DNA of 64,000 bases from Nannocystis bainbridge (GCF_028368995.1 NZ_JAQNDL010000002.1:352001-416000); one strand, 5' to 3'; positions 1,816 to 63,524 are shown, numbered from the stretch's first letter. Translations and numbers: made by a program. The notes: a model not told the origin generated them from the sequence alone.

Positions 1816-1853
1816 CGAGATGGCGCGAGGGACATGTTCTTTAGAGCATGTCT
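1816..1853. repeat. CATG-box array (14-bp period)
   Basis: GATG/CATG cores at 1819, 1833, 1847 (GGACATGTTC-ttta-GAGCATGTCT). A further box lies at 1770. Between convergent genes. Confidence 0.7.
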
Positions 1854-1882
1854 TCGATCACCCTGCGCCGAGGTCGAGGCGA

Positions 1883-2974
1883 TCAGCCGCGGGCGCGCCA
1901 GTCGGCCAGGGCCTTCGCCTCCTGCTCCGGGGTGATGGCGAACTCCGGGGCGTCGCGGCGCTCGGCTGGGACGGTCGGCCACCAGGCGAGGGTGTCGCGC
2001 ACGGTCTCGGCGAGCGGGCGGAACCGCAGGCCGGCGGCCACGGCCCTGGCGTTGCGCGTCGACATGTGGCCGAGGTCGTTGCCCTTCAACATGACCCAGG
2101 GGACAGCATCCGAGATGCCGTGGGCCTCGAGGAACGCGTAGTCGTCGACCCACACCAGGCGGGCTTCGGGGTTGACCGCCGCCTGCGCGGCCGCGAGGAA
2201 CTGCGGCATGGTCATCGGCTCGCGCGGGCCGACGGCGTTGTAGATCCCGCTGCGGCCGTCCTCGAGCAGACGCAGCATGAATTCGGCGAGGTCGCGGACG
2301 TCGATCAGCTGGACCGGATCGCCCGGGCGCCCGGGGGCGAGCACGTCGCCGCCGCGCTGCAGCCGGACCGGCCAGTAGGGGAAGCGATCGGTGGTGTCGC
2401 CGGGGCCGACGATGTAGGTCGGGCGGACGACGAGGCCGCGCTCGCCGAAGGCCTGCAGGACCTCGCGCTCGCTGCGAGCCTTGGCGACCCCGTAGGCCTC
2501 GGAGCCGTCGGCGGGATCGGTGGCCTCGAGGCGCACGGGCCAGGCCTCGTCGGCGCCCGCTCGCAAATAGGGGTAGTAGACGCCGGTCGAGGAGGTATAG
2601 AGATAGCGGCCGACCTGGTCCTTGAGCAATTGCGCGGACTGCCGGACCCACTCGGGGCGGGTGGCGGAGTCGTCGACGACGATGTCCCAGCGCCGGCCGA
2701 CGAGGGCTTCGAGCTGGCCGTCGCGGTCGCCGGTGAGGCGCTCGACGCCGGCGGGCAGCTCGGCTTGTCGGCGGCCGCGGGTGAAGATCGTGACACGATG
2801 GCCGCGGGCGACGGCGTGGCGGACCAGGTGCGGGCCGATGAAGCCGGTGCCGCCGAGGACGAGCAGGTCGAGCGGGCGGGCAGGACTGTCGGGGGCGACG
2901 ACGGCCGGCCGCGGGCCGCAGGCAGCAGCCGACAGGGCGGCGGAGAGCGCGAGGAAGCGGCGACGGGTGGGCAT
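1883..2974 (-). CDS. NAD-dependent epimerase/dehydratase (extended SDR) with Tat/lipoprotein signal
   Basis: MPTRRRFLALSAALSAAAC signal, GGTGFIG Rossmann motif, YGVAK (YxxxK), RPTYIVGP. Confidence 0.85.
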   Translation of the reverse strand: MPTRRRFLALSAALSAAACGPRPAVVAPDSPARPLDLLVLGGTGFIGPHLVRHAVARGHRVTIFTRGRRQAELPAGVERLTGDRDGQLEALVGRRWDIVVDDSATRPEWVRQSAQLLKDQVGRYLYTSSTGVYYPYLRAGADEAWPVRLEATDPADGSEAYGVAKARSEREVLQAFGERGLVVRPTYIVGPGDTTDRFPYWPVRLQRGGDVLAPGRPGDPVQLIDVRDLAEFMLRLLEDGRSGIYNAVGPREPMTMPQFLAAAQAAVNPEARLVWVDDYAFLEAHGISDAVPWVMLKGNDLGHMSTRNARAVAAGLRFRPLAETVRDTLAWWPTVPAERRDAPEFAITPEQEAKALADWRARG

Positions 2975-3104
2975 GGCCTGTCGCAAGGGTACGAGGCCGG
3001 GGGCGGGCCGCAAAGCGGCGCGCAGCCGGTTGGCCATGGACGGCCGGCTCGCTCCCTGCGACTCACGGCAGGCTGACCCGACGGTGCGGGCGATTCGTGG
3101 ATCG

Positions 3105-4883: not shown

Positions 4884-5849
4884 TCAGCGATAGGCGCCGC
4901 GTGGCGCGACGCCCGTGGTCGCGTGAATCACGGGCGGGACCCCGGCTGGCGCCGACGGCCACTGCACCTCGTAGGCCGCGCCGGGCTCGACGATCGCCTC
5001 GAACAGCTCGAACTGGCCGTCGGCGAGGAACAGGCCGCGCTGGCGGAGGAAGCGCTGGCGGGCGCTCTCGGTCATGGCGGGCCGGGTGACGGCGGTGAGC
5101 GGCAGGCCGAGGGTGACGGCGTCGGCCTCGACGTGGCGACCGTCGATGTCGAACGCGCTCGAACGCATCTCGCGGAGGACCCAGATCGGCGGCCAGGCGT
5201 CGCCGGGCGCGTCGAACAGGACGCCGAGCTCGTAGCCGAGGCACGGGCGGCCGGAGAACGGGGCGGCGAGCAGCGGGCCGCGGGGCTGCGGCTGGCCGAC
5301 GGCGCGCGCGGCCACGACGGCCTCGGCGGCGACCAGCGGCAGCGGCATGTGCCAGCGCGTGGGTCGGCTGCTGCCGCGCAGCATCAACGCGCGGCCGATC
5401 CGGCGCCGGCCGAGGCGATGGGCCAGGGCCGTGGCGCCGCCGCCGAGGCCGAGCAGCGACGGCCAGCCGAGCGCGACGAGACCGGCCAGCGCGAGGCCGC
5501 CGGCGCAGCCGATGCCGATCGCCGCGCCGGCCGCAACGGACGCGAGACGGACCTGCCACTTGAGGCGGTCGGGCGGGTGCCGACGCTCCTCCTCCTCGCG
5601 CTCGCGCAGGGCCTCGGCGACGTGCCAATAGTCGAGGTCGATCCAGGCCGTGCGCCCGCACGAGGGGCAGGCCGGATCGGTGTCGCAGAGGTAACCGCAG
5701 ACGTCGCACAGGAACATGCAGTCGAACGATTCCTTCGGCGAGCCTGCGCCCAATTGATGCGGGCGGATCGAGCTGCGCTTGCTGGCGATGACGGCCTGCT
5801 CGCGCTTGAGGCGGGCGATGGCGTCGACTGTGGCTCCGCCCCAGACCAT
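4884..5849 (-). CDS. hypothetical membrane protein with N-terminal zinc-ribbon
   Basis: CDVCGYLC...CPSCG, then two hydrophobic helices. GC3-biased frame. Confidence 0.65.
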   Translation of the reverse strand: MVWGGATVDAIARLKREQAVIASKRSSIRPHQLGAGSPKESFDCMFLCDVCGYLCDTDPACPSCGRTAWIDLDYWHVAEALREREEEERRHPPDRLKWQVRLASVAAGAAIGIGCAGGLALAGLVALGWPSLLGLGGGATALAHRLGRRRIGRALMLRGSSRPTRWHMPLPLVAAEAVVAARAVGQPQPRGPLLAAPFSGRPCLGYELGVLFDAPGDAWPPIWVLREMRSSAFDIDGRHVEADAVTLGLPLTAVTRPAMTESARQRFLRQRGLFLADGQFELFEAIVEPGAAYEVQWPSAPAGVPPVIHATTGVAPRGAYR

Positions 5850-5999: not shown

Positions 6000-6734
6000 A
6001 TGCAGTTTCACAACTTTGGAATGATCTTGATGACATGCGCCCTGGCGGGCTGTCCGGGCGAGAAGAACGACACCGAAGGCGGCACCGATCCGACGGCGAC
6101 GGGCGGCGAATCGGCGTCGACGAGCGACGGAGCGACGGGGCCGACGACCTCGGGATCGACGGCGACGAGCACCGGCGAGGCGACCGAGCCCGGCGCGACG
6201 AGCACGAGCGACGGCGACGCGACGGGCCCCGGCGAGACGAGCACGAGCACCGGAGAGCCGGGGCCGACGACCTGCGAGAAGTACTGCGCGCTGCTGGTCG
6301 CGTGCATCGGGCTGACGCCGGAGGAGGCCGCGACGTGCCCGCAGGACTGCGAGGCGGAGCTGGTGGAGCTGGATGGCGAGTGCCGGGTCGCGGTGGTGGC
6401 GACGTACGAGTGTCACGCGGAGCTGACCTGCGCGCAGCTCGATGACCTCGAGCAGGGCAAGGTCGGACCGTGCACCGACGAGGGCAAGGCGCAGGAGGAG
6501 GTGTGCGGCTTCGGCGATTCTTGCGAGCTCACCGGCGGGGGCGACGGCTCGGAGAATTGCGAGTACACGCGCAAGTGCGCCGGCGAGCCGGAGATGATGA
6601 TGCGCTGCACCGAGGCGGCTTGCGAGTGCCTCGAGGCGGGGGTCAAGTTCGGCGAGTGTGCTCCCGAGCAGGTCTGCAGCGACATCGCGGGGCTCGAGGC
6701 CAAGGCGCTGTCGTGCTGCGGGATCGGGGCGTGA
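6000..6734 (+). CDS. Cys-rich lipoprotein with Thr-rich linker
   Basis: GGAGAGG SD, lipobox LAGC, Thr/Ser/Gly linker, Cys-rich C-terminus. Confidence 0.8.
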   Translation: MQFHNFGMILMTCALAGCPGEKNDTEGGTDPTATGGESASTSDGATGPTTSGSTATSTGEATEPGATSTSDGDATGPGETSTSTGEPGPTTCEKYCALLVACIGLTPEEAATCPQDCEAELVELDGECRVAVVATYECHAELTCAQLDDLEQGKVGPCTDEGKAQEEVCGFGDSCELTGGGDGSENCEYTRKCAGEPEMMMRCTEAACECLEAGVKFGECAPEQVCSDIAGLEAKALSCCGIGA

Positions 6735-6757: not shown

Positions 6758-6781
6758 TGAGATGTCCTCAGGGACATGTCC
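6758..6781. repeat. CATG-box pair (14-bp period)
   Basis: GATG at 6761 and GGACATGTCC with core at 6775, between convergent genes. Confidence 0.6.
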
Positions 6782-6805: not shown

Positions 6806-7540
6806 TCAGGAGGGGTCGAGATCGGGGTAGCGGCGGAAGATGCCGTGCTCGTTGAAGGCCAGGCGCCGCGGGGAGGCCAGGTACGCGGCGATGCGCGGGC
6901 GGGCGGCCACGCGGTCGCCCAGGCGCAGCAGCGCGGGCGTGCCGCGGGCGTGGCGGGCGAACGCGTGGGGGAAGGCGTACTCGAGGCCGAGCAGGGCCTG
7001 CAGCAGCGACAGGTCGGCGTGGCAGCAGGCCTCGCCGAGCAGCCACGGGCCGCCGCTGCGCTGCAGCACGCGGTCGAAGTAGGCCAGGAACTTGGGCAGC
7101 CGGGCGTCGCGGAAGGCGGCGGCTCGCAGCGCGGCGGCGTCGCGCTGGTCCTCGTAGTATTGCGCGCTCGAGATCGGGTGGTGGGTGTCGTGGGCCTCGG
7201 CGACGAGGTCGCTGATCGTCAGTTGCAGCTGCATGGCCTCGGCGCGGCCGCCATCTGTCCCCGGGGACAGGTCGTGACGATCGCCGAGGAAGCCGCAGAT
7301 GTTGGCGGTCTGGGCGATCACGAGGTCGCCGGCGCGGAGGATCGGCGGGGCGAAGGCGGGCAGGCCGGGCAACGACTCGAGGGCGCGCACGATGGCCGCC
7401 TCGCCGCCGCCCTCGGAGGCGGGCCGGCGGGCGACGTCGAGGTAGGGCGCGCCGGCGTCCTCGCAGACGAGGCGGACGAACTCGCCGCGGCCGGGGATGC
7501 CGGGCCAGTAGTAGAGCTCGTAGAGATCGGCGGTGGGCAT
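6806..7540 (-). CDS. glutathione S-transferase
   Basis: YELYYWPGIPGRGEFVRL, FAPPIL, IAQTANI, ADLSL, FNEHGIFRRYPDLD. Confidence 0.9.
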   Translation of the reverse strand: MPTADLYELYYWPGIPGRGEFVRLVCEDAGAPYLDVARRPASEGGGEAAIVRALESLPGLPAFAPPILRAGDLVIAQTANICGFLGDRHDLSPGTDGGRAEAMQLQLTISDLVAEAHDTHHPISSAQYYEDQRDAAALRAAAFRDARLPKFLAYFDRVLQRSGGPWLLGEACCHADLSLLQALLGLEYAFPHAFARHARGTPALLRLGDRVAARPRIAAYLASPRRLAFNEHGIFRRYPDLDPS

Positions 7541-15536: not shown

Positions 15537-17027
15537 ATGATTAAGGCCATCTCGACATACGCCCTGCCGCGCCTCTCGGCCGGCGCCCTGTTTACATTCA
15601 GCGCCTCGCTGGTCGCGCTGGGTTGCCCGGCCGACTCCGGCACCTCGACCGGGACCGAGACCGAGACCGGCACCGACACCGGCACCGATGCGGGCACGGA
15701 GACGGCGGGTCCCACCACCGTCGACCCGAGCGAGACCGGCGGCCTGACGACCTCGACGACGATCGACCCGACCACCGCCGGGCCGACCAGCACGACGGAG
15801 GACGAGACGACGACCACGACCGAGGCGACGACGGTCGACACCACCACGACCGAGGCGACCACGGTCGACACCACCAGCGCCGAGACGACGACCACGACCG
15901 GCGTGGTGGAGGAGACCACCACCACCGGGACCGACACGACCGACACCACGACCGGCGAGACGACCACCGAGGACACCACGACCGGCGGGCCGATCAAGCC
16001 CGAGGACTGCGAGGAGCTGCCGATCTTCGGCGTCGAGCTGCTGAGCCAGCAGGAGCACCAGCTCGAGAGCGCCGGGCCGGTGCCGCTCGTGCGCACGCCC
16101 GCGGGGCAGGCCAGCATCACCGCCGATCCGGCGCTGTTCGACCTGCTGCGGATCCTCTTCGACGGCGACCTCGGCGTCGGCGTGCACGCGCTGGATCCGG
16201 ACCCCAACCATGCGGTCCCCAACAACGTCCAGCTTTACGTGCCGATCAGCAACGCCGCCGTGGTCTACCAGGAGGACCTGGCGATGAACGCCTACACCAA
16301 GGTGTTCACGGCCGTCGCCGGCGAGCTCGAGATCTTCGACCTGGTGACGCCGCACCAGACCCACGGCCGCGTGCGCCACGTCGAGCTGCGCGAGATGGTG
16401 AAGGTCGGCGACCTGCTCGAGCCGGTGATGGGCGGGGCCTGCTACTGGATCGAGGAGGCCGAGTACGACGTGCGGCGGCCCAGCGGCTGCGCCCCGTTCA
16501 CCGACGATGCGTGCGCTGCGGAGCAGTTCTGCATGCCGGTCAACGCGATCGGCAGCGACGGCGTGTGCGTGACCGGCGGGGCCAAGGTCGAGGGTGAGAC
16601 GTGCGCTCTGGTCGACCCCAACGGCTGGGACTCGGACTGCGGGCTCGGCCTGCGCTGCGTCGATTTCGGCGACGGCCACGAGTGCGGCCAGGTCTGTGAC
16701 GTGCTGTCCGACGCGCCGGGCTGTCCCGCGGGCACCCACTGCGGCGGCGGCTACAACATGTGCCTGCCCGAGGCGCTGCTGCAGAACAGCGGCATCGACC
16801 CGGCGCCGCTCGGCGAGCCGTGCGTCGACAACCCGGCGGCGCTGTACTGCGGCGGCGAGGGCCGGCCGGGGCACTGCTACGACGACGACGGCAACGACGG
16901 CCCGCTGGTGTCGACGTGCCTGCCGTTCCTGCCGGCGCAGTCGCAGTGCGAGGCGCCGCAGGTCGCCGGCTACGTGGCGTACAAGGCGGGCATCGACCGC
17001 TCGACGCTGTGGTGCCTCACGCCGTGA
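15537..17027 (+). CDS. lipoprotein with long Thr-rich linker and Cys-rich C-terminus
   Basis: Lipobox ALGC, ~110-aa Thr/Glu linker, many Cys. Confidence 0.8.
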   Translation: MIKAISTYALPRLSAGALFTFSASLVALGCPADSGTSTGTETETGTDTGTDAGTETAGPTTVDPSETGGLTTSTTIDPTTAGPTSTTEDETTTTTEATTVDTTTTEATTVDTTSAETTTTTGVVEETTTTGTDTTDTTTGETTTEDTTTGGPIKPEDCEELPIFGVELLSQQEHQLESAGPVPLVRTPAGQASITADPALFDLLRILFDGDLGVGVHALDPDPNHAVPNNVQLYVPISNAAVVYQEDLAMNAYTKVFTAVAGELEIFDLVTPHQTHGRVRHVELREMVKVGDLLEPVMGGACYWIEEAEYDVRRPSGCAPFTDDACAAEQFCMPVNAIGSDGVCVTGGAKVEGETCALVDPNGWDSDCGLGLRCVDFGDGHECGQVCDVLSDAPGCPAGTHCGGGYNMCLPEALLQNSGIDPAPLGEPCVDNPAALYCGGEGRPGHCYDDDGNDGPLVSTCLPFLPAQSQCEAPQVAGYVAYKAGIDRSTLWCLTP

Positions 17028-17094: not shown

Positions 17095-17160
17095 GAGCAT
17101 GCTCGCCAGGACATGTCCTTGAGGGCATGCTCTTGTGGGCATGCCCATTCGGGCATGTCC
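17095..17160. repeat. five-box CATG array (14-bp period)
   Basis: GAGCATGCTC, GGACATGTCC, GGGCATGCTC, GGGCATGCCC, GGGCATGTCC, each separated by 4 nt (cores 17098, 17112, 17126, 17140, 17154). Confidence 0.92.
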
Positions 17161-17173: not shown

Positions 17174-19378
17174 TCAGCCCAGGTCGGCGAGCGCCAGCGG
17201 CCAGCGGTGGTCGTAGGCCACCAGCTTGCCGGTGGCCGCCAGCGGCGCGGCGTCGGGGAGCGGCTGCGGGTCGCCCTCGGCGGCGAGCACGAACGCGTGC
17301 AGCGGGGTGACGACGACCACGCCGCGCTCGCTGCCGGTGGCCAGCAAGTGGGTCACGGGCGGTTGCACGACCTCGCCGGCGGGCAGGGTCTGCTCGCCGC
17401 AGGGGCGGCCCTCGGCGTCGAACCACAGGTGACGGTCGTCGCTCTCGACCACCAGGCGGCCGGCGCCGTCGAACTCGAACAGCCAGGCGTTCTTCAGGGT
17501 CCTGCGGGCCAGCTCGCGGCCGGCGCGGATGTCGTGGAGGACCAGCGCGTCGTCCTTGCGGGCGGTCCAGGCGACCCGCTGGCCGTCGGCCGAGAAGCGC
17601 GGCGACTCGTACTCGCCCCACGGGGCCGCGACCTCGCGGAAGCCCGCGCCCTCGCGCAGCCAGCAGCGCGACACGTGGCGCCCGCGCTGCGAGTCGTAGA
17701 CGTCGGCCTTGAACAGCGAGCCGTCGTCGCTGGCCAGCAGGTTGCCCGAGCTGAGGAAATCATCGGACGAGACCACGCCGAGCTGGGCGAGCTCGCGGCC
17801 CTCGGCGTCGAGCTCGACCAGCCGGCCGCTGCGGTCCTCCTCGCGCAGCAGCGCGAACACGCCGCCGGTGCGCTCGATCGGCGCGGCGTGGTGGATCCGG
17901 ATCGCCAACTGCTCGGCCCCGGCGGCGGTCAGGCGGAAGGCGTCGTCGTTGTTGAACCACGCCAGCGCGGCGTCGCGGCCGAGCGGGACGGCGCCGCTGA
18001 ACGCGTGCGAGGCGCCCCAATCGATGCCGCGGGCCAGCTCGACGCCGGCGGGCGAGCGCAGGGCGACGCCCTTCTCGACTTCGGTGAAGCCGAGGATCAG
18101 GCCGCTGCCGTCGCGCGTGACCTGAGGCTCGTACAGCGGCGGGGACATGTGCGCGGCCCGGACCGCGCCCTTCGGCAGGGTCTGGCGGAACCGGACCGCG
18201 CCGTCGTGGCCGAGGTGGAGCACCTGGTCCTCGTGGACGCGGGCGATCAGGCCGTCGGAGGCGCCGGCGGAGCTGATCTGATCGACCTCGGCGATCGGGC
18301 CGGCGAAGCGCAGGCCCTCGGGCTCGAGCGTGGCCACGAACAGCTGGCCGCCGCGGCGCGCGAGCGCGGCCAGCGTGCCGCTGGCGTCGCGGTGCATCAT
18401 GCCGACCGCGCAGTCTTGCTGGATCCGCGTCTGCAGCTTGCGCGCGATCGTGCCTTCCACGTCGGCCCACACCACCTCGCCGGCGGCAGTGCCGAACACG
18501 AACTGACCGGCGGCGAGGCCTGGCGCGATCGCGGTGATCGGGCCGTCGGTCGACGGCAGGGTCGAGGCGACCGCGCCCGCGCGCAGCACCGCGACCGCGC
18601 CGGCGGTGGCGACCGCGATCGCGTCCTCGCCGACCGCCGCGAGGCCGACCACCGGGCCTTCGACGCGACCGAGGGGCACCAGCGCGGCGTCCTTGCCGGG
18701 CTGCCAGGCGGCGACGCTGCCGTCGTCGAAGCCGATCAGCGCCCGCGCGCCGGCGGCCGCGAGCGCGGTCGCCTGAACGCCTGTCTCGAAGGACAGGTCG
18801 GCGATCGGCTCGCCGTCGCGATGGGCGCGCAGCTCGGCGCGACCGAGGGTGACGAGCACGTCCTCCGCGAGCGCCGTGAACGCGCGCAGGCCGAGGTGCT
18901 GCGCGGCCCAGGTCGGCTTGCCCACGCTGGCGCGGCCGCGCTTCTGCGCGACCTCGTAGGCCTCGATCGCGCCGCTGTCGCGGGCGACCACGACCTGGGC
19001 ATCGTCGGCGACGAAGGCGGCGCCCATCCGCCGCATCGGCGCGGGATAGGCGGCGGTGTCGCGGCCGTCGCCCTTCTTGATCCCCTGCAGCCAGGCAGCG
19101 TCGCGGACCACGAGGGTGAAGGTGGCGCTGGCCTTGGGGACGGTGCTGCGCGCCGACACCAGGCACTCGGCCACGTAGTCGTGGAGCTCGCCGGCGGTCG
19201 CGTGGGGATCCTGGTCGTTGGCGCGGGCGATCGGGCCGGCGGCGCCGAGGCCGTCGAGCAGCCGCAGGGCGAAGATCGGGCAGAAGGAGACGACGTCCTT
19301 CTCGAGCGAGCGCACGGTCAGCTTGATCTCGGCGCCCTTGAGCGCGGCGACTTTGACGGAGTAAGTGGCGGTCGACAT
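17174..19378 (-). CDS. beta-propeller (WD40-like) repeat protein
   Basis: Repeated beta-strand units ([33 protein letters not shown]). Confidence 0.7.
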
Positions 19379-19547
19379 GGGGGGGCGCCGGCCATCCTAT
19401 CATCGAGGTCCTGCGCATCGGCTGGGGGCGCGGGGAGGCGGGGGCCGCGGAGCGACGGTCGGGGGCGGCCTGGCCGTGGCCCGGCGCGGCCGGGGGCGCG
19501 AGCGGGAGACGAGGCGCGGCGATCGGCTTACGATCCACGGGACCGCC

Positions 19548-20843
19548 ATGCGCCGCCTCGCCGCCCTCGCCGCCCTCGCGCTCGCCATCACATGTCTTTG
19601 GGGACAGCCTGCCGCCTCGGCCGCCGCGCCGGCGCCGGTGCCCGATAAGGCGTACTTGCTGCGGCCGGCGCGGGTGTTCGACGGCGAGGCGGCGCGCGAG
19701 GGCTGGGTCGTGCTGGTCCGCGGCGAGCGGATCGCGGCGGTCGGGCCGGCGGCGCAGGTCGGCGTGCCGGCCGACGCGGAGCCGATCGAGCTGGCGAACA
19801 CCACGCTGCTGCCCGGGCTCATCGAGGGCCACTCGCACCTGCTGCTGCACCCGTATGACGAGACGTCGTGGAACGACCAGGTGCTGCGCGAGCCGCTGAC
19901 GGTGCGCGTGGCCCGGGCCACCAACCACGCCCGCGATGCGCTGCTGGCCGGGTTCACGACGGTGCGCGACCTCGGCACCGAGGGCGCGGCGGAGGCCGAC
20001 GTGGGGCTCAAGCAGGCGATCCGGCAGGGCATCATCCCCGGGCCGCGGGTGGTGACGACGACGCGGGCGATCGTCGCCACCGGGACCTACGCGCCGCGGG
20101 GCTTCGCGCCGGCGTGGCACGTGCCGCAGGGCGCGGAGGAGGCCGACGGCGAGGACCTGGTCCGGGTGGTGCGCGGCCAGATCGCCCGCGGGGCCGATTG
20201 GATCAAGGTGTACGGCGATTACGCGTGGGGGCCGAAGGGCGAGGCGCTGCCGACGTTCTCATTGGCGGAGATGCAGCGGATCGTGGCGACGGCGCGCGAC
20301 GGCCGGCGGCCGGTGGTGGTCCACGCGAGCACGCCGGAGGGCATGAAGCGGGCGGTGCTGGCCGGGGCGGAGACGATCGAGCACGGCGACGGCGGGACCG
20401 CGGAGGTGTTCAAGCTGATGGCGAAGCGCGGGGTCTACCTGTGCCCGACGCTGGCGGCCACCGACGCGGTCCAGCAGTACGCCGGCTGGAAGCCGGGCGT
20501 CGGGCCCGAGCCGCAGGCGATCCGCGACAAGCGGGCCAGCTTCCGCGCGGCGCTGACCGCCGGGGTGCCGATCTGCTTCGGCAGCGACGTCGGGGTGTTC
20601 CGCCACGGCGACAACGCGCGCGAGCTCGAGCTCATGGTCGACTACGGGATGAAGCCGATCCAGGCCCTGCGCGCGGCCACGTCGGTCAACGCGCGGATGC
20701 TTCACATGGCCGACAGCATCGGCCAGGTCAAGGTCGGGCTGCTCGCCGACCTGGTGGCCGTCGAGGGCGACCCGACCCGCACGATCTCGGCGGTCCGGCA
20801 GGTCCGCTTCGTCATGAAGGGCGGGGCGATCCACCGCCGATGA
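19548..20843 (+). CDS. secreted metal-dependent amidohydrolase (prolidase-like)
   Basis: Signal peptide, [46 protein letters not shown]. Confidence 0.92.
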
Positions 20844-20855
20844 CGGGCGATGGAA

Positions 20856-20889
20856 TCATGCCACATGTCTCCGGAGACATGTGGCATGA
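20856..20889. repeat. perfect 34-bp palindrome built from CATG boxes; possible bidirectional terminator or REP-like hairpin
   Basis: TCATGCCACATGTCTCCGGAGACATGTGGCATGA equals its own reverse complement and lies between convergent stop codons. Confidence 0.88.
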
Positions 20890-20902
20890 ATGCCCGGGCC
20901 GT

Positions 20903-21709
20903 TCACTCGGCGGGCACGGGGCCGGGGACGTCGGCGCCGGTGCGCTGGCGGGAGGCGTGGCGCATCTCTTCGATGCGGGCGCGGGCCTCCTGGCGCATGT
21001 TCTCGGGCAAGAAGCTGAGGATGATCGCCAGCAGCATCAGCGACGCGGGCATCAGGAACACCAGGAACTCGACGCGGTGGGCGATCGGGACGGTCACGGC
21101 GGCGCCAGCGGCGAAGGCGGCGATCTTGCCGGCGCGCAGGGCCGCGTGGCGCTTGGCCAGCGCGAGCGCTTCGTCCTTGCTGAACATCAACTCGGCCAGG
21201 TGGATGCCGAGGTCGGTGGCGGGGCCGGTGAGGTGGGTGGTGCGGACGAGCAGGCCGGTGCTGGTAGCGATGGCGGCGTTCTGCAGGCCCATGGCGAAGC
21301 TGAGGATCGACAGCAGGATGAAGTCGGCCGGGACGATGACGGGCCCGCCGAACACCCCGAGCAGCCCGAAATGCCCGGCGATCGCGGTGAACAGGACCAG
21401 GGAGAAGGAGATCCACAGCGGCACGCTGAACCGCGGCCGCTTGTTCTGGTGCGCCCGGCCGTTGATGAGCAGGCCCGAGAGCATCGCCCCGCCGATGAAG
21501 CAGCTCAGCACCAGCGCGAAGTCGAGGAGCGGCATCAGGTGCACGACTTCCATACCCAGGCGCGTGACGGTTCCTGTCACGTGTGTCACGTAGGTCTGGC
21601 AGGCGAGCAGCGCCGCGGCGTTCACGGCGCCGGCGGCGAAGGTAAAAAGCAGCCAGCTCGGGATGTGCCGGGGCGAGAAGATCGATTCGGGGCGGTAGAG
21701 CGTCAGCAT
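20903..21709 (-). CDS. YoaK/DUF1275 family membrane protein
   Basis: AGAVNA, VTHVTGTVT, FAMGLQNA, VRTTHLTGPATDLG. Confidence 0.9.
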   Translation of the reverse strand: MLTLYRPESIFSPRHIPSWLLFTFAAGAVNAAALLACQTYVTHVTGTVTRLGMEVVHLMPLLDFALVLSCFIGGAMLSGLLINGRAHQNKRPRFSVPLWISFSLVLFTAIAGHFGLLGVFGGPVIVPADFILLSILSFAMGLQNAAIATSTGLLVRTTHLTGPATDLGIHLAELMFSKDEALALAKRHAALRAGKIAAFAAGAAVTVPIAHRVEFLVFLMPASLMLLAIILSFLPENMRQEARARIEEMRHASRQRTGADVPGPVPAE

Positions 21710-33350: not shown

Positions 33351-33377
33351 AACGTACAGAGTACGTCGGGGCTCGCG

Positions 33378-43563: not shown

Positions 43564-43564
43564 G

Positions 43565-48481: not shown

Positions 48482-48801
48482 TCGCGGGCGCGCAGGAGGC
48501 GGGCGATCGCGGCGATGCCGGCCTCCATGCGCGCGCGAGCGGCGGTGTTTGCGGAGTGCACGGCGAGGGCGGGCGGGACGAAGCCGCGGGTGGCGACGGC
48601 CTCCTCGATCCAGCGGACGACGTCATAGCCGGTGCCGCGCGCGTCGTCGCCGAGGTCGTGATCGAGGCTGAGCTCGGCGACGGCGCCGGTCTGCAGCAGG
48701 GCCACGACCTCGTCGGGCCAGCGCACCGGCAGCCAGCCGGGCGGGGCCGGGCGCTCGTCGTCGAGCCAGAGCCGCAGGTTCGGAGCTGTCGCTTCGGACA
48801 T
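48460..48801 (-). CDS. cyclic-phosphate-processing receiver (cREC) domain protein
   Basis: LWLDDERPAP, SLDHDLG, TGYDVVRWIEE, VHSAN. Confidence 0.85.
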   Translation of the reverse strand: MSEATAPNLRLWLDDERPAPPGWLPVRWPDEVVALLQTGAVAELSLDHDLGDDARGTGYDVVRWIEEAVATRGFVPPALAVHSANTAARARMEAGIAAIARLLRAREAAHDAS

Positions 48802-48821
48802 GTCCCGAGAGACCTCTCGGA

Positions 48822-50393
48822 TCAGCGGACCATGACCCACCGGGCGGCGCCGGGCTTGTGGCAGTCGTGGATCGGGACGACGGCGTCGAGGGTGTTGGGG
48901 TCGGAGGCGAAGGTGTCGGCGGAGGGGGAGACCACCGCGGCGCCCTTCCACGGGTAGTTGGCGAGGCCGCAGCCGTACTGGTCCTGGGCGATCTCGTCGA
49001 TGTGCCAGGCGCCGGCGCAGCCCTCGGAGGTGCCGACGTGCCAGGTGCAGATGGTCTTGTTCTGGACGAAGTTGCCCTTGAGGCGGGCCTCCTTGTAGAG
49101 CACCTTGGTCCAGTTGAAGCAACTGTTGGGGCCGCCCTGGCCGTTGAAGAGGTTGGTGGCGGCGGTGAGCAGGTAGTCGTCGCCGCGGCAGTCGATGCGC
49201 ATGTCGGTCGCGAGGTCGCGCCAGGTCGTCATCTGGGCCTTGGACAGGCGGTGGCGGGCGTTGGCGGGGTCGGCCGGATTGACGGGCAGGTCGTTGTAGA
49301 GGGCCTTGCCGATGGTCTGGGCGCCGAGCGGGCTGCGCTCGAGCACGGTCCAGCCGCCGCCGGCGGTGAGCATGTCGCAGAAGACGGATTGCGCCGGCTG
49401 CGGACCGACGCCGTCGGGGTCGACGAGGTAGACGCCGCTCGGGGCCTGGGGGAGGCTGGCGTGCAGCTGCTGGCAGGTCTCCGGCACGGTGCAGACGCTG
49501 GTGCAGCCGTCGCCTTCGTCGGCGTCGGCGTCGTCGCACTGCTCGACGCCGGCTTGCACGTGGCCGTCGCCGCAGCTAGCGGCGATGCAGTCCGTCAGGC
49601 AGGCGTCGGTCTGCGCGGCGTTGCCGTCGTCGCAGACCTCGACGCCGTCCTGGACGTGGCCGTCGCCGCACTTGGCGAGCTCGCAGGTGGTGAGGCAAGC
49701 GTCGGTGTCGTCGGCGTTGGCGTCGTCGCAGGCCTCGACGCCGTCGCGCACGTGGCCGTCGCCGCAGCTGGCGGCCAGACAGGTGGAGAGGCAGGCGTCG
49801 GTGTCGTCGGCGTTGGCGTCGTCGCAGGCTTCGCCGACCTGGACCGCCCCGTCGCCGCAGGTCGCGAGGGCGCAGTTGTTGGTGCAGGCGTCGTCGTCGT
49901 CGTCGTTGGCGTCGTCGCAGGCCTCGACGCCGGCCTGGACCAGGCCGTCGCCGCACTCGGCGAGGGCGCAGGCGAGGGTGCAGTTGCCGTCGTCGGCGTT
50001 GGCCGGGCCAGCGTCGCAGGCCTCGCCGTCGTCGACCTCGCCGTCGCCGCAGAAGGGGGCGGGGCCGGTGGTGCCATCCGTGGTGGTGGTGGTGTCGACC
50101 GAGGTGGTGCCGGTTTCGGTGGTGCTGGTCGAGGTCGAGGTCGAGGTGGTGGTGGTGTCGCCGGTGGTGGTGGTCGAGTCGCTGGCGTTGCCGGTGCCGA
50201 GCGTGCTGTCGCCGGTGGTCGGCACGCCGGTGGTCGGCGCCGGTTCGCCGCTGCTTTCACCGCCGGTCGTCGCCTGCGTGTCCGTGCCGGCCGTGGCCGT
50301 GTCGGTGGTGACCGCGACGCCGCTGTCTCCGCACCCCGCCGCGACGAGGACCGTGGCAAAGGCGCCCCTGCTCCCCCATACAAACAGTTTCAT
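48822..50393 (-). CDS. lipoprotein with DUF4215 Cys-rich repeats and fibrinogen-like C-terminal domain
   Basis: Lipobox AAGC, Thr linker, six CGDG...EACDD repeats, SGVYLVDPDG..FCDM..GGGWT. Confidence 0.88.
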   Translation of the reverse strand: MKLFVWGSRGAFATVLVAAGCGDSGVAVTTDTATAGTDTQATTGGESSGEPAPTTGVPTTGDSTLGTGNASDSTTTTGDTTTTSTSTSTSTTETGTTSVDTTTTTDGTTGPAPFCGDGEVDDGEACDAGPANADDGNCTLACALAECGDGLVQAGVEACDDANDDDDDACTNNCALATCGDGAVQVGEACDDANADDTDACLSTCLAASCGDGHVRDGVEACDDANADDTDACLTTCELAKCGDGHVQDGVEVCDDGNAAQTDACLTDCIAASCGDGHVQAGVEQCDDADADEGDGCTSVCTVPETCQQLHASLPQAPSGVYLVDPDGVGPQPAQSVFCDMLTAGGGWTVLERSPLGAQTIGKALYNDLPVNPADPANARHRLSKAQMTTWRDLATDMRIDCRGDDYLLTAATNLFNGQGGPNSCFNWTKVLYKEARLKGNFVQNKTICTWHVGTSEGCAGAWHIDEIAQDQYGCGLANYPWKGAAVVSPSADTFASDPNTLDAVVPIHDCHKPGAARWVMVR

Positions 50394-50861
50394 GGCGGGA
50401 TGGTACGCGAACGGATCGCTGGCCGGGGAGCCGCGTCGATCGGCACGAGGACGGCGGCGCCGACGCTGGCGTCGTGCAGGCGGGTGCACGGTGACGTGGC
50501 GGAGGTGCGGGGCGAGACCACCCGGCCCGCGTGCGCAGAGCGGGCCGCGGAGGAGGAGCTGTCTTTCGAGACATGTCCGTGGATTCGCCGGGGTGGTGAC
50601 ACGGCGGTAGCAAGGGGCCGGTGCGGTGGGAGCTGGTCGCTCACGGCCGAGTGCATCGAGGAGCGCTTGTTCCGGATCTCGAAACGAGAGCGCGGGGCCG
50701 AGCGCCGTGGTGTCGGCGTCGCCGACGCGGTGCGTCGATGCACGACATCGTCGCGCGCGGCTCGCTGCGAGGCCACGCTTCGCAAGCGAACGCACGAGGA
50801 CGCGGCAGCTGGATCGCGGCAGCAGGACGCTAGCTCGCGTGGGGGTGACGGGGACTGATGC

Positions 50862-54897: not shown

Positions 54898-54963
54898 GGG
54901 CATGCCCGATCGATCATGCCTATCAGAACATGTCTTTAGGCACCTGTGCGATCGGCCATGCGT
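54898..54963. repeat. CATG-box array (14-bp period)
   Basis: Cores at 54901, 54915, 54929, (54943 CCTG), 54957. Between convergent genes. Confidence 0.8.
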
Positions 54964-54977: not shown

Positions 54978-56225
54978 TCAGCCGGCGGGATCGAAGCCGA
55001 CGTCGCAGCCGTAGCGGACGTCGAGCTTGGCGCCGGCGTCGGCCTGGACCTCGGCGCAGGCGGCAGGGCAGAGGATGACGGTGGCGTTCTCGATGTAAAA
55101 GGCTTCGGCCTCACAGGCGGCGAGGTCGATGACCTGATGGAAGGCCTTGGCGGGCGGGAGGCCGCCGACCTGGTAGTCGATCTGGATGGTGTCGGGATCG
55201 ATGGTGCCCATGGGCGGGTCGGGGATCGGGAAGGCGCAGGCGATCGGGGTGGTCTCGACGACGTCCTTGGCGATCTCCTGGAAGAGGACGTCGAAGGAGT
55301 CGGTCTGCGACAGCGGGAACCGCCAACCACCGCTGACGACGCTGACGCGCTGGATCGATTCGCCCTCGCCCTGGAGCGGGTCCACCGGCAGCCAGGGGGC
55401 GTCGGCGGGGCTGTTGGCGGGCATGGTGACGATGGCGTGGAAGACGTAGTCGCGCGCGCCAGGGGTGCCGAAATGCGGAGGATCGAGGGCGAGCAGGGCG
55501 GCGTCGAAGGCGTCGCCGTCAGCCTCGGCGTTCGAGGCGCTGGTGGCGTCGGTCATGGCGAGGATGACCTTGCGGGTGCCGTCGCGCAGGAAGTCGCGGA
55601 AGCCGCCAGGGGCGAGGCCGTGCGGGTCGGGGGTGGTGTACCAGGCGAGGATGTTGTCGAGGAAGGCGCCGGAGCCGGTGATGGCGTCGTAATGCTTGTA
55701 GCGCTCGGTGACGGCAGGGACGGTGGGGGGAGGGTTGCAGTCGGTGCCGGACAGCGGGGCGCTGATGCAGATGTCGAGCTGCTCGCCAGGCGGCCAGTCG
55801 CCCATGACGATGACGCGATAGTCGATGTCGCTGGCGCCGAGGATGGCGGCGAAGTCCTGGTTGATGCTGGCCTCGACGGCGGCGATGGCAGCCTGCATGG
55901 AGTTGGAGGTGTCGACGACGACGACGACGTCGACGCCGATCGACTGGACCTGCGGCTCGAGCATCTGGGCGGCACAGTCGCCGGTGGTGGCCATGTCGCC
56001 CTGGTCAGGCTGCTGGCCGAGGTCGAGCTTGGGCAGGCCGGTGGTGGAGGTGGTGGTCGGCTCGCCGGTGGAGGTGCCGTCAGTGGCGGCGCCGTCGGTG
56101 GTGCCGAGCGTGGTGGGGGCAGGACCGCTGGTGGTGAGGGTGGCGTTGGCGGTGTCCTGGGGCCGGCCGCTGTCGCCGCAGGCGAGGAGAGGAGCGCACA
56201 GGAGAAGCGCGGGGAGGCGGTGCAT
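54978..56225 (-). CDS. vWA-like domain lipoprotein
   Basis: Lipobox LLAC, Thr linker, VVVVDTSNSM (MIDAS DxSxS). Confidence 0.82.
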   Translation of the reverse strand: MHRLPALLLCAPLLACGDSGRPQDTANATLTTSGPAPTTLGTTDGAATDGTSTGEPTTTSTTGLPKLDLGQQPDQGDMATTGDCAAQMLEPQVQSIGVDVVVVVDTSNSMQAAIAAVEASINQDFAAILGASDIDYRVIVMGDWPPGEQLDICISAPLSGTDCNPPPTVPAVTERYKHYDAITGSGAFLDNILAWYTTPDPHGLAPGGFRDFLRDGTRKVILAMTDATSASNAEADGDAFDAALLALDPPHFGTPGARDYVFHAIVTMPANSPADAPWLPVDPLQGEGESIQRVSVVSGGWRFPLSQTDSFDVLFQEIAKDVVETTPIACAFPIPDPPMGTIDPDTIQIDYQVGGLPPAKAFHQVIDLAACEAEAFYIENATVILCPAACAEVQADAGAKLDVRYGCDVGFDPAG

Positions 56226-56477: not shown

Positions 56478-56529
56478 GGACATGTCCTCATGGGCATGAG
56501 TCATGGGACATGTCGTTTTGAACATGTCC
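56478..56529. repeat. four-box CATG array (14-bp period)
   Basis: Cores at 56481, 56495, 56509, 56523, 12 bp downstream of the permease stop. Confidence 0.85.
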
Positions 56530-56540: not shown

Positions 56541-57032
56541 TCATGCGCGGATCAGGCGGACGATGAGCTGGGCGGTGGCGCCGGCGGCGAAGGGGAGCAG
56601 GCAGCTTGCGGCGACGCGCAGGGCGGCGAGGCGGGCGCCGTAGATGCCTACTTCCATCGGCAGGCGGAGGATGGGCAGGAGGGCCATGCTGGTGAGGTAG
56701 GTGACGAGCACGCCGACGCCCGCGCCGGCCTTGAGCAGGCCGGCGGCGAGGGGCATGCCGAGGAGGCCGCCGCCGGGGGTGAGGGCGCCGGCGATCCAGG
56801 CGAGGAGGTGGCCGCGCGGGCCGGCGGCGTCGCTGAGCCAGCGCTCGACGAAATCGGCGGGGAGGAGGGCCTCGGCCATGCCGGCGAGCAAGAAGGCGAC
56901 GACGAGGATCGGCATCATCGTCAGGAAGGTGCGGCCGGATCGCTGGAGGCCGTCGACGAACACGCCCTGGACGGCGGCGAGCAGGCCGAGGATCAGCAGG
57001 GCGGCGGCGAGGAGGAGGAGGGCGAGCTTCAT
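56541..57032 (-). CDS. small permease (ArsP-like / predicted permease family)
   Basis: Multi-TM, AGALTPGG..PLAAGLLKAGAG. ATGA overlap with the upstream gene. Confidence 0.75.
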   Translation of the reverse strand: MKLALLLLAAALLILGLLAAVQGVFVDGLQRSGRTFLTMMPILVVAFLLAGMAEALLPADFVERWLSDAAGPRGHLLAWIAGALTPGGGLLGMPLAAGLLKAGAGVGVLVTYLTSMALLPILRLPMEVGIYGARLAALRVAASCLLPFAAGATAQLIVRLIRA

Positions 57033-61203: not shown

Positions 61204-61224
61204 CGACGCGGCGCGGCGCGAGGC

Positions 61225-63168
61225 TCAGGCGCAGGTGCCCTTGGGCGCGCCGCAGTCGCCGGCGCCGGTGCAGGTGCCGCTGACGCACTCGGCGTCGAAG
61301 CGGCAGGCTTCGCCGGCCTTCAGCGAGGCCTCGCAGTAGGAGTCGCCGCACTCCTCGGGGAACTCGGCCTCGCGCTGGGCGTGCGGCGGGAGGGCGACGA
61401 TGCCGCTGGCATCGAGGTCGCCTGCGGGGTCGGCGGGGCCGGAGCGCGGGGCCTCGGCGCGCTCCCACATGCGCACGAAGGCGTCGGCCGAGTCGCGCAG
61501 CGGGGTGGTGTCGGTGCCGAGCTGGTCGAGGTCGGCGAGCAGGTCGGGGAGCAGGCCGATGTGGCCGAGGCCGGCCTCGTCGAAGCCGGTGCCGAGCGGG
61601 GCGGGGCCGCCGGCGAGCTCGTCGCGGGCCTGACAGCGGGCCTCGGTCGGGAACGAGGCGGAGCAGGCGTCGACGCCGAAGCGCGGGCGGACCTGCTGGA
61701 TGAAGCCGTTGAGGTCGGAGCCGAGAGCGACGGCGACCTTGAGGCCGAGGCGGGCGAAATCATAGGACTGCGCGAACGAGCGGCTCGAGCCGTGGCAGGT
61801 GTTGGCGACGTCGGAGGGCTCGTAGGTGTTGACCTCTTCGTGGCCGGTGCGGATGCCGAAGATCCCGCCGACCTCGCGCAGGTGCTCGACGATCCACACG
61901 GGGGTGGTCTTCTCCTCGCGCGCCTTGTCGGCCGGGAGCATCTCGCGGAAGTGGCCGTGCGAGACGTAGAAGGGGTAGTAGTCGCGGGCGACCGCGAGGG
62001 CGTGCAGGTCGCGCACGCCCTTCTCCGACAGGTGGGCGGCGTCGACGAGCATGCCGAGGTCCATCATGGCATTGGCGAGCTGCTCGCCCTCGGCGGTGAG
62101 GCCGAGGGTGTTGCGACAATCGGCGTCGACGTCGAAGCCGAGGGTGACGCCGCCCTGGGTGATGCCGCAGTCCATGTCGATGTGACAGTTCTCGGCGTAC
62201 TGGGCGATGTGGAAGATGTTGTTGTGCGGGGCGGCGCCGCCGAAGCGGTTGTCGAGCTGGTGGACGGGCTGGAGGGTGCGCACGCCGAGGGCGTAGAGCT
62301 CGTCGAGCTGCGGCTTCCAGTCGCCCTGCTGCATGAGGTGCGAGGCCTCGACGCTGAGCACGAGGGCGAGCCGATCCTCGCCGACGATCCGGCGGGCGTC
62401 GGCGGCGGTCAATGCGATCTCGGCCCAATCATGGGTCTCGACGAATTGGTGGGCCAGCTCGAGCTGGACCTTCACGTCCTCCATCTCGTCGCACTGCGGG
62501 CGCTCGAGGTTCTCCTCGGCGATGGCGCGGCACAGCCAGTCGTTGGAGACGGCCGAGACGACCTCGAGCCGCAGGCCGGCCATGTAGGCGGCGTGGAGGT
62601 GCTCCTCCCAGACCTGCTGGTGGGCGATGGCGTCCCAGCGCGGCCAGCCCTGAAAGCCGGGCCAGCCGTCGACGCGGGCCTTGTGCTCGCCGGTGTCGCC
62701 GGTGGAGCCGGGGATCTGGCTGACGAACTCGCTGACGACCTCGCCGCCGCCAGGCGCGGCGATGACGGAGACGAGCGGGACGAGCTTGGCGAGGTCGGCG
62801 AGGCTCATGCCCTCGCACTCGCCGAGCAAGGGGGCGAGGTCGTCCTTGAGGCGAGCGTGGTCGCCGGGGTCGCCGCCGTCGCAAGGGGCGAGGGCGACGT
62901 CGCCAGGGCCGGCGTGGCTGCCGTGGAACCAGCCGCCGCCGAAGGCCTCCTCGGCGAACATGTGGAGGTGGAGGTCGGCGACGCCGTGCAGGGTCGGGAG
63001 GTCGGGGCCGCCGGTGGTGGTCGGGGCGTCGGTGGTGGTCGGCGTGTCGGTGGTGGCGCCGGTGCCGGTGCCGGTCGTGGTGCTCGCGTCGGTCGCGGCC
63101 GGGCCGCCGCCGTTGCAGGCGGTGAAAAAGGCGAGGCTCGTGAAGGTGACGGCGAGACCGCGGATCAT
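61225..63168 (-). CDS. membrane dipeptidase (M19)-like amidohydrolase lipoprotein
   Basis: Lipobox FTAC, ADLHLHMF, LSVEASH, PVHQLDNRFGG, DAAHLS, VSHGH, LGSDLNG. Confidence 0.85.
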   Translation of the reverse strand: MIRGLAVTFTSLAFFTACNGGGPAATDASTTTGTGTGATTDTPTTTDAPTTTGGPDLPTLHGVADLHLHMFAEEAFGGGWFHGSHAGPGDVALAPCDGGDPGDHARLKDDLAPLLGECEGMSLADLAKLVPLVSVIAAPGGGEVVSEFVSQIPGSTGDTGEHKARVDGWPGFQGWPRWDAIAHQQVWEEHLHAAYMAGLRLEVVSAVSNDWLCRAIAEENLERPQCDEMEDVKVQLELAHQFVETHDWAEIALTAADARRIVGEDRLALVLSVEASHLMQQGDWKPQLDELYALGVRTLQPVHQLDNRFGGAAPHNNIFHIAQYAENCHIDMDCGITQGGVTLGFDVDADCRNTLGLTAEGEQLANAMMDLGMLVDAAHLSEKGVRDLHALAVARDYYPFYVSHGHFREMLPADKAREEKTTPVWIVEHLREVGGIFGIRTGHEEVNTYEPSDVANTCHGSSRSFAQSYDFARLGLKVAVALGSDLNGFIQQVRPRFGVDACSASFPTEARCQARDELAGGPAPLGTGFDEAGLGHIGLLPDLLADLDQLGTDTTPLRDSADAFVRMWERAEAPRSGPADPAGDLDASGIVALPPHAQREAEFPEECGDSYCEASLKAGEACRFDAECVSGTCTGAGDCGAPKGTCA

Positions 63169-63312
63169 CGTTCCAGGCACGCTAGCGAGGGCGAGGGCGA
63201 CGGTCAAGGCGGGGCTGCGGGGCGCCCGGGGGCCGCTGGGCGGGCGGGACGGCCGGGGCGCGGCGCCCGGGGCCGGGGCTGGGGCGCGGCCGAGGAGGCA
63301 GTGTGGCCCATG

Positions 63313-63524
63313 GGACATGTCCGATGGGTCATGCGTGCGCGCCGCCGGCTCGACTCGCGTGGCCGGCGGGACAGGCTCGGTCTGCGGCTGGTTCGACCGC
63401 GACATGGCCGACGAAGCAGAGCCGACAGGTCGCGTCGTGCCGGTGCGCATGGCTCTTGGGACATGGCGAACAGGGAATGTTCGATGGGGCATGTTCCATC
63501 GAACATGCGCGTTCGGGCATGCCC
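63313..63524. repeat. CATG-box arrays (14-bp period)
   Basis: Cores at 63316/63330 and 63448, 63462, (63476 AATG), 63490, 63504, 63518. Confidence 0.85.

Follow-up and report, generated by a model that had tools for sequence, protein, structure and literature searches.

The 64-kb stretch of Nannocystis bainbridge DNA analyzed here (GCF_028368995.1, NZ_JAQNDL010000002.1:352001-416000; called the window below) has a G+C content of 71.9% and carries 47 predicted genes. Its gene content is myxobacterial and includes genes for DUF4215 proteins, two cyclic nucleotide (cNMP)-binding type 2 encapsulins, a terpene synthase, and a methyltransferase. Between the genes lie arrays of a short palindromic box with the consensus RRRCATGYYY, whose CATG cores recur every 14 bp and which usually begin 6 to 25 bp past a stop codon (Table 1). 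These arrays are real, restricted to the genus in our sample, tied to the 3′ ends of genes, and held in exact register. On sequence grounds we propose, with a probability of roughly 40%, that they constitute a site lattice to which a symmetric DNA-binding protein would attach, marking the ends of transcription units.

CATG boxes with a 14-bp period in the window

The window contains 234 CATG tetranucleotides, of which 27 pairs were spaced by 14 bp, 16 by 28 bp, 8 by 42 bp, and 4 by 56 bp, compared to 2 off-register pairs at 13 bp and 1 at 15 bp. In 200 dinucleotide-preserving shuffles the number of 14-bp pairs averaged 0.6 and never exceeded 4, which bears out the exact 14-bp spacing claimed in a preliminary description of this DNA. 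The complete box RRRCATGYYY was found 22 times, whereas 2.7 occurrences were expected and at most 7 were obtained in 100 shuffles. Nineteen of the 22 boxes were located outside the gene calls and two of the remaining three at called gene starts, leaving only one that lies clearly within a coding sequence. Every array listed in the preliminary description was found again, and the single boxes at 48796 and 50569 were also present. The degenerate box it had placed near position 60584 is without a CATG (GGGATGTCC), lies in a divergent intergenic region, and was not counted. Tandem Repeats Finder (TRF) independently detected a period of 14 at 17108-17157 and 56475-56513; with its default score, just two of the window arrays were reported. 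A weaker half-period signal was present as well (7 CATG pairs at 7 bp and 6 at 21 bp versus about 0.5 to 0.6 expected). A second register built on these half-period CATGs (6 to 8 bp) was rejected, as they mostly represent NCAT spacers followed by G.

Palindromic 4-mers that do not vary are classic sites of methyltransferases or restriction enzymes, and the arrays might accordingly be methylation islands in which CATG is the target of a lineage-specific methyltransferase and is read by a methyl-sensitive protein, which would be a special case of a protein lattice. The palindromic and invariant 4-mer and the symmetry of the boxes at the DNA level would suit such a role. However, the frequency of CATG in coding sequence was unremarkable, without depletion or enrichment (167 in 54.4 kb, compared to about 191 per 64 kb of shuffled sequence), no methyltransferase gene was linked to the arrays, the sole one in the window belonging to the terpene cluster, and methylation alone leaves the 14-bp register unexplained. 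We give this explanation a very slim chance.

Taxonomic range and anatomy of the arrays

A pattern scan of 185,579 species genomes for three GRNCATG boxes at 14-bp spacing yielded at least 120 loci, so that the taxonomic range obtained is a lower bound; the first 80 loci were fetched with 2-kb flanks. Among the 120 matches listed, 37 originated from seven Nannocystis or Nannocystaceae assemblies (Nannocystis sp. RBIL2, N. punicea FL3, N. pusilla Na p29, N. exedens DSM 71, N. radixulma, a Nannocystis metagenome-assembled genome [MAG], and a Nannocystaceae MAG). All 37 were of the type found in the window, with an invariant CATG, a purine-rich left flank, a pyrimidine-rich right flank, and variation in both flanks and spacers. 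We read the other 83 listed matches, which came from cyanobacteria, actinomycetes, one Sorangium, and other organisms, as chance hits or simple tandem repeats; the non-Nannocystis matches consisted mostly of near-identical 7- or 14-bp units or of isolated single matches. The variable-flank type was thus confined to Nannocystis and Nannocystaceae among the matches listed, in agreement with the lineage-specific character initially proposed.

The 37 loci and the window together provided 72 arrays with 242 boxes. The repeat unit can be written as G(0.74) G(0.66) R, C A T G, Y C(0.66) C(0.71), followed by the 4-nt spacer. Only CATG is invariant; the flank positions agree with the consensus in 53 to 74% of the boxes, and the two central spacer positions are about 55 to 60% A+T in a genome with 28% A+T. 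Arrays of 2 (23 cases), 3 (19), 4 (16), 5 (11), 6 (2), and 8 (1) boxes were observed, a size distribution biased by the scan pattern, which favored arrays of at least 3 boxes.

In many filamentous cyanobacteria the heptamer GGGCATG, which reads CCCCATG on the complementary strand, forms extended tandem stretches, frequently in alternation with GGGCATT (scan loci L012, L017, L021, L023, L027, L036-L038, L044, L056, L058, L062, L063, L067, L069, and others). This is a separate simple-repeat phenomenon caught by the scan pattern.

Register and core in diverged units and orthologs

In the Nannocystis loci and the window, non-coding CATG pairs were 13, 14, and 15 bp apart in 5, 143, and 0 cases, respectively, counts that come in part from loci chosen by the 14-bp pattern. 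The in-phase core was CATG in 227 of 235 units, with both the array definition and the scan pattern requiring CATG. Spacers and flanks were unrelated between arrays, and even units of the same array shared only 4.18 of 10 variable positions, compared to 3.95 for random units (z = 1.9). Young duplicates were few, 8 or more variable positions being shared in just 3 of 170 pairs of neighbors. That units can arise by duplication is evident from young copies at 30269 and 4522-4865. The latter region is a tandem repeat of 87 to 90 bp (TRF period 87, 3.9 copies, 75% matches) with one array per copy, which shows that CATG arrays can be amplified within larger tandem units; it occupies a non-coding gap of 621 bp that precedes a molybdopterin oxidoreductase gene. 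If units duplicate, the occurrence of divergent units with intact cores implies that the arrays are old at their variable positions, whereas core and register have been held.

None of the fetched loci was orthologous to the window according to megablast, blastn, and tblastn, and therefore no window array could be set against an ortholog. Two ortholog pairs only were present among the fetched loci themselves. In the pair L051/L080, whose flanks are 95.5% identical, 6 of 6 CATGs were kept and 11 of 30 inter-core positions differed. In the pair L008/L084 the array follows the same stop codon, L008 has one unit more, and one CATG is replaced by CATT. A 4-nt indel was found just outside the L051/L080 array, but no indel within the arrays of either pair. 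When both pairs were pooled, 39 of 40 core positions were conserved compared to 34 of 60 inter-core positions (p = 1.9e-6).

These data also bear on the view that the arrays are neutral minisatellites, that is, a functionless 14-bp unit spread by replication slippage, with the apparent conservation being an artefact of defining arrays by CATG. Recent duplications are indeed visible, exact 7- and 14-bp CATG tandem repeats occur in many other phyla among the matches listed, and CATG was a prerequisite of definition and scan alike. Slippage, however, predicts near-identical units, whereas the units found here are as unlike as random ones and free of indels. In addition, one purine/pyrimidine-symmetric consensus recurs at independent loci in seven assemblies, and the arrays are absent from divergent gaps and close to stop codons. 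We therefore rejected assignment to the class of simple tandem repeats or minisatellites and consider a neutral origin very unlikely.

Position of the arrays relative to genes

Gene positions were derived with our own heuristic based on the G+C content at third codon positions (GC3), the starts being especially rough. Forty-eight non-coding arrays of at least 3 boxes could be placed, 27 of them flanked by two stops, 20 by a stop and a start, none by two starts, and 1 by a stop and a locus edge; one further 3-box array lay within a called open reading frame (ORF; L002). The nearest stop was at most 25 bp away in 36 of the 48 arrays and at most 40 bp away in 41. In the 31 gaps offering at least 80 bp of free room, stop proximity exceeded that of uniform placement (Fisher combined p = 1.3e-5). 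Sixteen of the 20 arrays in co-directional gaps were closer to the stop than to the start, four of these representing the single tandem repeat of the window, and as exceptions the arrays of L020 and L070 abut a called start. In convergent gaps of N. pusilla and of a Nannocystis MAG, two separate arrays in different registers were observed, one beside each stop (L040:1973-2035, L009:2001-2102, and L042:1998-2118); one of the two arrays in L040 is a perfect 26-bp palindrome. The genes adjoining the arrays are ordinary ones, such as tyrS, ftsQ/ftsA, rpsD, and those for isocitrate dehydrogenase and thiolase.

In the window, 15 of the 47 predicted genes, about one third, have a box within approximately 70 bp past the stop codon. 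Arrays occupy 5 of 9 convergent gaps but 0 of 8 divergent gaps according to our reading of the gene list. With the triplets at 4566-4867 taken as one site, 9 of the 10 non-coding sites with at least 2 boxes have a stop within 39 bp, which confirms the earlier statement that nearly all arrays begin within about 35 bp of one. Six arrays had been described as lying between convergent genes; the GC3-based calls reduce this number to five (1830, 6772, 17095, 20854, and 54898). The array at 30269..30320 probably lies inside an operon.

Table 1. CATG boxes and arrays in the window, with neighboring genes and RNA folding
Position	Feature	Setting	RNA fold
1816	In-phase degenerate box, GATG core	Neighbor of the 1830..1853 array	
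1830..1853	2-box array, GGACATGTTC ttta GAGCATGTCT	Between convergent genes 1143..1790(+) and 1883..3037(-)	z -3.4
4566-4603, 4653-4690, 4743-4780, 4830-4867	Four 3-box arrays, one per tandem-repeat copy	Downstream of stop of 4884..5849(-); last array 16 bp from stop	
6758..6781	Exact box GGACATGTCC (6772-6781) with degenerate neighbor GAGATGTCC	Between convergent 6021..6734(+) and 6806..7540(-); box 6772 is 24 bp from stop	
17095..17160	5-box array, all boxes fit RRRCATGYYY; TRF period 14	Convergent gap; 13 bp from stop of 17174..19378(-), 67 bp from stop of 15537..17027(+)	z -5.4 (+ strand), -5.2 (- strand)
20854..20891	Perfect palindrome with 15-bp stem and four CATG (spacings 7, 14, 7)	Occupies 59-bp gap between convergent 19476..20843(+) and 20903..21709(-)	-31.9 kcal/mol, z -4.8
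30269..30320	4-box array, recent 28-bp duplication, asymmetric flanks	Overlaps stop of 30313..32442(-); 67-bp gap between co-directional alpha-amylase-family genes	z -0.8, poor hairpin former
33313..33352	2-box array (33320-33343) in hairpin, ~15 paired bases per arm, reaching past the boxes	34 bp after stop of 33378..34241(-)	-28.5 kcal/mol, z -8.2
48796..48805	Single perfect box GGACATGTCC	16 bp past stop of 48822..50393(-); adjoins short separate palindrome CCGAGAGGTCTCTCGG	
50569..50578	Single box AGACATGTCC, family membership uncertain	Middle of 468-bp co-directional gap	
54898..54963	4 exact boxes and in-phase degenerate box (CCTG core)	Convergent gap; 14 bp from stop of 54978..56225(-)	z -4.2
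56478..56529	4 in-phase boxes and extra out-of-phase CATGs; TRF period 14	11 bp past stop of 56541..57032(-), 252 bp from next called start	z -2.0
63313..63336	2-box array	At or inside called 5′ end of 61225..63405(-), start uncertain	
63445..63524	5 exact boxes and in-phase degenerate box (AATG core)	6 bp past stop of 63531..63998(-)	z -3.7

In accordance with the earlier remark that U-tract terminators are scarce, their number in the regions 1-20000 and 40001-60000 was near chance level (7 versus 3.5 and 8 versus 4.7 expected), with one convincing site. No CATG array was among these 15 terminator-like sites, and no T run directly follows the arrays, which thus do not resemble canonical intrinsic terminators. 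The convincing site, at 43522-43555 (read as 43555-43522) just after the methyltransferase gene, consists of a stem of 15 bp and CTTCTTTTGC after it; U-tract terminators are thus available to the genome, though seldom used. A role of the arrays at gene ends would fit a genome with 72% G+C because U-tract terminators are near chance level.

Folding, pairing, and symmetry

When folded as RNA, 8 of 10 arrays gave z scores between -3.4 and -8.2, the exceptions being 30269 (-0.8) and 56478 (-2.0). Hairpins in 3′-untranslated regions had been suggested initially, and a cluster of RNA hairpins, in which neighboring boxes pair to form 10-bp stems with 4-nt loops, is the closest rival explanation, somewhat less probable than a protein lattice and not exclusive of it. 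Such a cluster could serve as a factor-independent terminator lacking a U tract, as a barrier to 3′ exonucleases, or as a structure located immediately downstream of the terminating ribosome that tunes the upstream gene, and it would be bidirectional since the boxes are palindromic. Hairpins of repetitive extragenic palindromic (REP) sequences located at most 15 nt from a stop codon reportedly affect translation, as described by Liang, Rudd and Deutscher in 2015. The distribution of the arrays over the three kinds of gap fits one cluster per 3′ end, and their placement close to stops, also in long and in co-directional gaps, the separate arrays at each stop in some convergent gaps, the near-chance number of U-tract terminators, and the long, near-perfect hairpins at 20854 and 33313 point in the same direction. 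In PMC8355165, clusters of hairpins located at most 80 nt from stop codons are reported to act as terminators in 13 genomes, and these resemble the CATG arrays in lying within tens of nucleotides of the stop and in lacking a U tract, with most of the arrays folding. Generic terminator hairpins, however, have neither a sequence family nor a core or fixed period and are individually complementary, whereas the CATG arrays have a fixed core and register.

The individual complementarity expected of hairpins was scarcely seen in the arrays. No covariation was detected in 162 adjacent box pairs under a within-box, an inner inter-box, or an outer inter-box scheme, so that the proposed comparison of intra- with inter-box covariation came out negative either way. 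The stem and spacer pairs gave |z| values of at most 2.6 in all schemes, and values near 3 were reached only by the outer pairs j=4 and j=6, which are located beyond the 10-bp stem; Watson-Crick fractions of 0.39 to 0.65 equaled the expectation from column composition. Complementarity between neighbors showed no excess over random boxes in arrays of 2, 3, or 4 boxes (z = 0.3 to 1.3) and a weak excess in 10 five-box and 2 six-box arrays (z = 2.0 to 2.7 for Watson-Crick pairs, 0.3 to 2.0 with G·U included). The examples of neighbor-complementary boxes quoted in the preliminary description are real, but as a class the boxes are no more complementary to their neighbors than random ones. In the presumed stems, 50% of the flank pairs were Watson-Crick, 15% G·U, 12% A·C, and 23% other, corresponding to about 2 mismatches in a typical stem. 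No long-range dyad was found between spacers, and self-palindromic spacers were mildly enriched (22 of 170, z = 2.1).

Strand signatures of RNA were likewise absent. In co-directional gaps, where the upstream gene gave the orientation of 90 boxes, each of the 7 mirror position pairs was statistically symmetric (p = 0.18 to 0.91), G·U pairs were not favored over A·C pairs on the sense strand (54 versus 44), and GNRA or UNCG loops were no commoner in sense than in antisense orientation. Rfam at gathering thresholds assigned no family to any array. Selection for hairpins could not be shown, since the pairing tests gave no signal beyond the weak excess in the five- and six-box arrays. Furthermore, thermodynamics explains neither why the CAUG core is conserved above the rest of the stem nor why the loop is exactly 4 nt long, and the array at 30269 keeps CATG and register, yet barely folds. 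Folding and stop proximity thus support the hairpin proposal, whereas covariation and G·U signatures are missing. The boxes match a symmetric consensus independently of one another and are not halves of a co-evolving stem, and the folding of the arrays seems to be a by-product of each box resembling one self-complementary word.

Comparison with known repeat and operator systems

The preliminary description called the arrays similar to REPs and bacterial interspersed mosaic elements (BIMEs), and in location and clustering this likeness holds. Both are extragenic, lie at gene 3′ ends and in convergent gaps, and form clusters of regularly spaced palindromes whose unit number varies between relatives and which contain an invariant tetranucleotide. 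The likeness does not extend to unit size, tag, or shared stem. The CATG unit comprises 10 bp and is its own reverse complement, whereas REPs are imperfect palindromes of 20 to 40 bp with a shared stem; the arrays share no stem sequence and show no covariation, and their spacers are unrelated between loci. CATG is central, whereas REPs carry their GTAG/CGTC tag (PMC3733652) at the 5′ end. GTAG was found within 20 bp of 1 of the 48 arrays and CGTC of 18, the latter without fixed position and unremarkable at 72% G+C. Membership in the family of REPs mobilized by REP-associated tyrosine transposases (RAYTs) was rejected because of the 10-bp unit, the near absence of GTAG, and the lack of a shared stem, although the location agrees.

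Selfish REP/BIME-like repeats that serve as substrates of an HUH/RAYT-type or CATG-specific nuclease and are tolerated at 3′ ends could likewise be extragenic, clustered, and enriched in convergent gaps. The additional box in L008, the local duplications (28 bp at 30269; 87 bp, 3.9 copies, at 4522-4865), and the invariant tetranucleotide, which recalls the REP tag, would also be understandable. Yet no RAYT, transposase, or Y1/HUH family was detected by Pfam in 158 neighboring proteins (47 of the window at E ≤ 1e-5 and 111 flanking arrays in the Nannocystis loci at E ≤ 1e-8), so that the idea of a RAYT substrate raised initially received no support. The unrelated spacers and flanks argue against block-wise copying of arrays, arrays with their cores persist at orthologous sites, and the proximity to stops in long gaps exceeds mere tolerance. 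We consider selfish repeats unlikely.

The closest architecture is, by analogy, that of tandem operators of the MetJ/omega type. The 8-bp metboxes of MetJ and the 7-bp heptads of omega are operator arrays of ribbon-helix-helix proteins with 2 to 10 copies, each bound cooperatively by one dimer. They share with the CATG arrays short, symmetric boxes with degenerate edges placed head to tail in an exact tandem register. They differ in being promoter operators at few loci, whereas the CATG arrays follow stop codons and were found in divergent gaps in 0 of 48 cases. Highly iterated lineage-specific motifs are also known in the cyanobacterial HIP1 (GCGATCGC) and in the DNA uptake sequences (DUS) of Neisseria, pairs of which occur in terminators. 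HIP1 and DUS resemble the CATG boxes as short, lineage-specific motifs present about once per few kilobases, with DUS pairs in 3′ gaps, but they are not known to form phased tandem arrays and are common inside genes, whereas only 1 of 22 CATG boxes was clearly coding. The half-site of p53 response elements, RRRCWWGYYY, is formally identical in its degenerate consensus, and such a decamer would suit a symmetric protein able to recognize the core and to respond to the shape of the flanks. The p53 sites are eukaryotic transcription-factor sites without known evolutionary link, and their half-sites are spaced by a variable 0 to 13 bp instead of a fixed 4-nt spacer. We take the match to be a coincidence. 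CRISPR arrays were rejected as an assignment, since a 10-bp box with a 4-nt spacer contrasts with repeats of 23 to 50 bp and no cas families were found among the 47 and 111 proteins.

We found no description of phased CATG-box arrays in the literature searched. A myxobacterial genomics review, as far as searched, contains a single passage on palindromes, concerning CRISPR, and mentions neither Nannocystis nor such repeats. The CATG arrays look like a selectively maintained and apparently undescribed family within a known kind, the dispersed extragenic palindromic repeats at gene ends, and there is a real chance that their reader and mechanism are new.

A proposed protein lattice at gene ends

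As gene-end elements of the Nannocystis lineage, the arrays consist of 2 to 8 copies of GGR-CATG-YCC with 4-nt, A/T-rich spacers, each box being a putative site of a dimeric, sequence-specific protein. In the CATG core this protein would recognize each individual base, in the flanks only purine versus pyrimidine, and its binding along double-stranded DNA would be cooperative. As 14 bp correspond to 1 1/3 helical turns, three boxes would span four turns, and the bound protein could form a helical lattice. The lattice would mark or insulate the ends of transcription units, whether through termination assisted by the protein, by stopping read-through or read-in, or by acting as a barrier to supercoils; folding of the transcribed arrays may contribute too. 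High core information with flanks specified at the purine/pyrimidine level is usual for sites of dimeric DNA readers. A dimeric, cooperative reader is suggested here by the symmetric consensus, the high-information core with purine/pyrimidine flanks, the lack of covariation and of a strand signature, and the fixed period. The phased binding lattice for a dimeric protein, which had been one of the original suggestions, thus offers the best fit to the mirror symmetry, the absent covariation, and the strict register, whereas the closeness to stops fits RNA.

Several points weigh against a protein lattice. Both the protein and its binding are predicted from sequence. The tight proximity to stops (36 of 48 arrays within 25 bp) would be expected of an RNA- or translation-linked element, and, given the footprints of roadblocks, a DNA roadblock 6 to 17 bp past the stop would halt the polymerase approximately at the stop codon. 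One DNA lattice would serve both directions, although L009, L040, and L042 have one array beside each stop. Most arrays fold well as RNA, and in a minority of the 2-box arrays the stems run 4 to 7 bp past the boxes (for example 33313-33352 and 20854-20891), so that true hairpins exist in the family. The evidence for the register includes spacing counts from loci selected for that very spacing, and the contrast between cores and inter-core positions in the orthologs decreases to 17 of 20 versus 34 of 60 (p = 0.03) when the three boxes per locus required by the pattern are discounted. Finally, all gene positions depend on the GC3 heuristic.

A farther-reaching version of the protein lattice, to which we assign a somewhat lower probability, is a genome-wide cis code in which CATG boxes locked at 14 bp and a polymerizing symmetric protein would constitute a bidirectional terminator or insulator that replaces U-tract terminators. 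By extrapolation, the arrays would number thousands per genome. Such a lattice, specified by a dispersed repeat family, would give bacteria a counterpart to termination of the roadblock or mTERF style.

The arrays touch on the question of how transcription units end in very G+C-rich bacteria without U-tract terminators, and a motif of rigid period, present at about one third of the gene ends in the window and genus-wide, makes this question directly testable. If the protein lattice is true, the arrays represent a new class of gene-end signal, and if hairpins suffice, a terminator class built from one self-complementary word. Myxobacteria are important producers of natural products, and either way the arrays would provide a genus-specific mark for 3′-end annotation and a compact bidirectional part for myxobacterial engineering.

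Other features of the window

Two further repeats were noticed. A 447-bp gap between the convergent genes 21838..22245(+) and 22693..24504(-) contains, at 22463-22521, 3.5 copies of a 17-bp unit, GTCATTGTTGCGGTGCC, which are 97% identical and have no relation to the CATG boxes. At 11590-11660, in a 51-bp convergent gap and the adjoining stop region, GATTCGCCG occurs as three direct copies with irregular spacing; no CATG array is located there.

The region 42343-47381 contains genes for a family-2 terpene synthase (42343-43497), an S-adenosylmethionine-dependent methyltransferase (43565-44431), and two type 2 encapsulin shell proteins with cNMP-binding domains (44502-45899 and 45984-47381), and looks like a 2-methylisoborneol-type cluster. 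The sole Rfam matches in the window, to the 'antisense sRNA' Sernc350, lie antisense to the two encapsulin genes (162 and 138 bits) and probably reflect conserved coding sequence rather than an RNA gene. The region 34924-42213 encodes a 1495-amino-acid Lhr-type helicase (37726-42213), followed by an Fpg/Nei glycosylase (36862-37722). A separate ORF of 132 amino acids (34924-35322) is limited to the Fpg zinc finger and may represent the remnant of a gene. The GC skew of the plus strand was positive in 31 of 32 2-kb windows (cumulative value 3.9), and nearly all genes from 22 kb on are located on the minus strand, so that the coding strand is C-rich in this part of the window.

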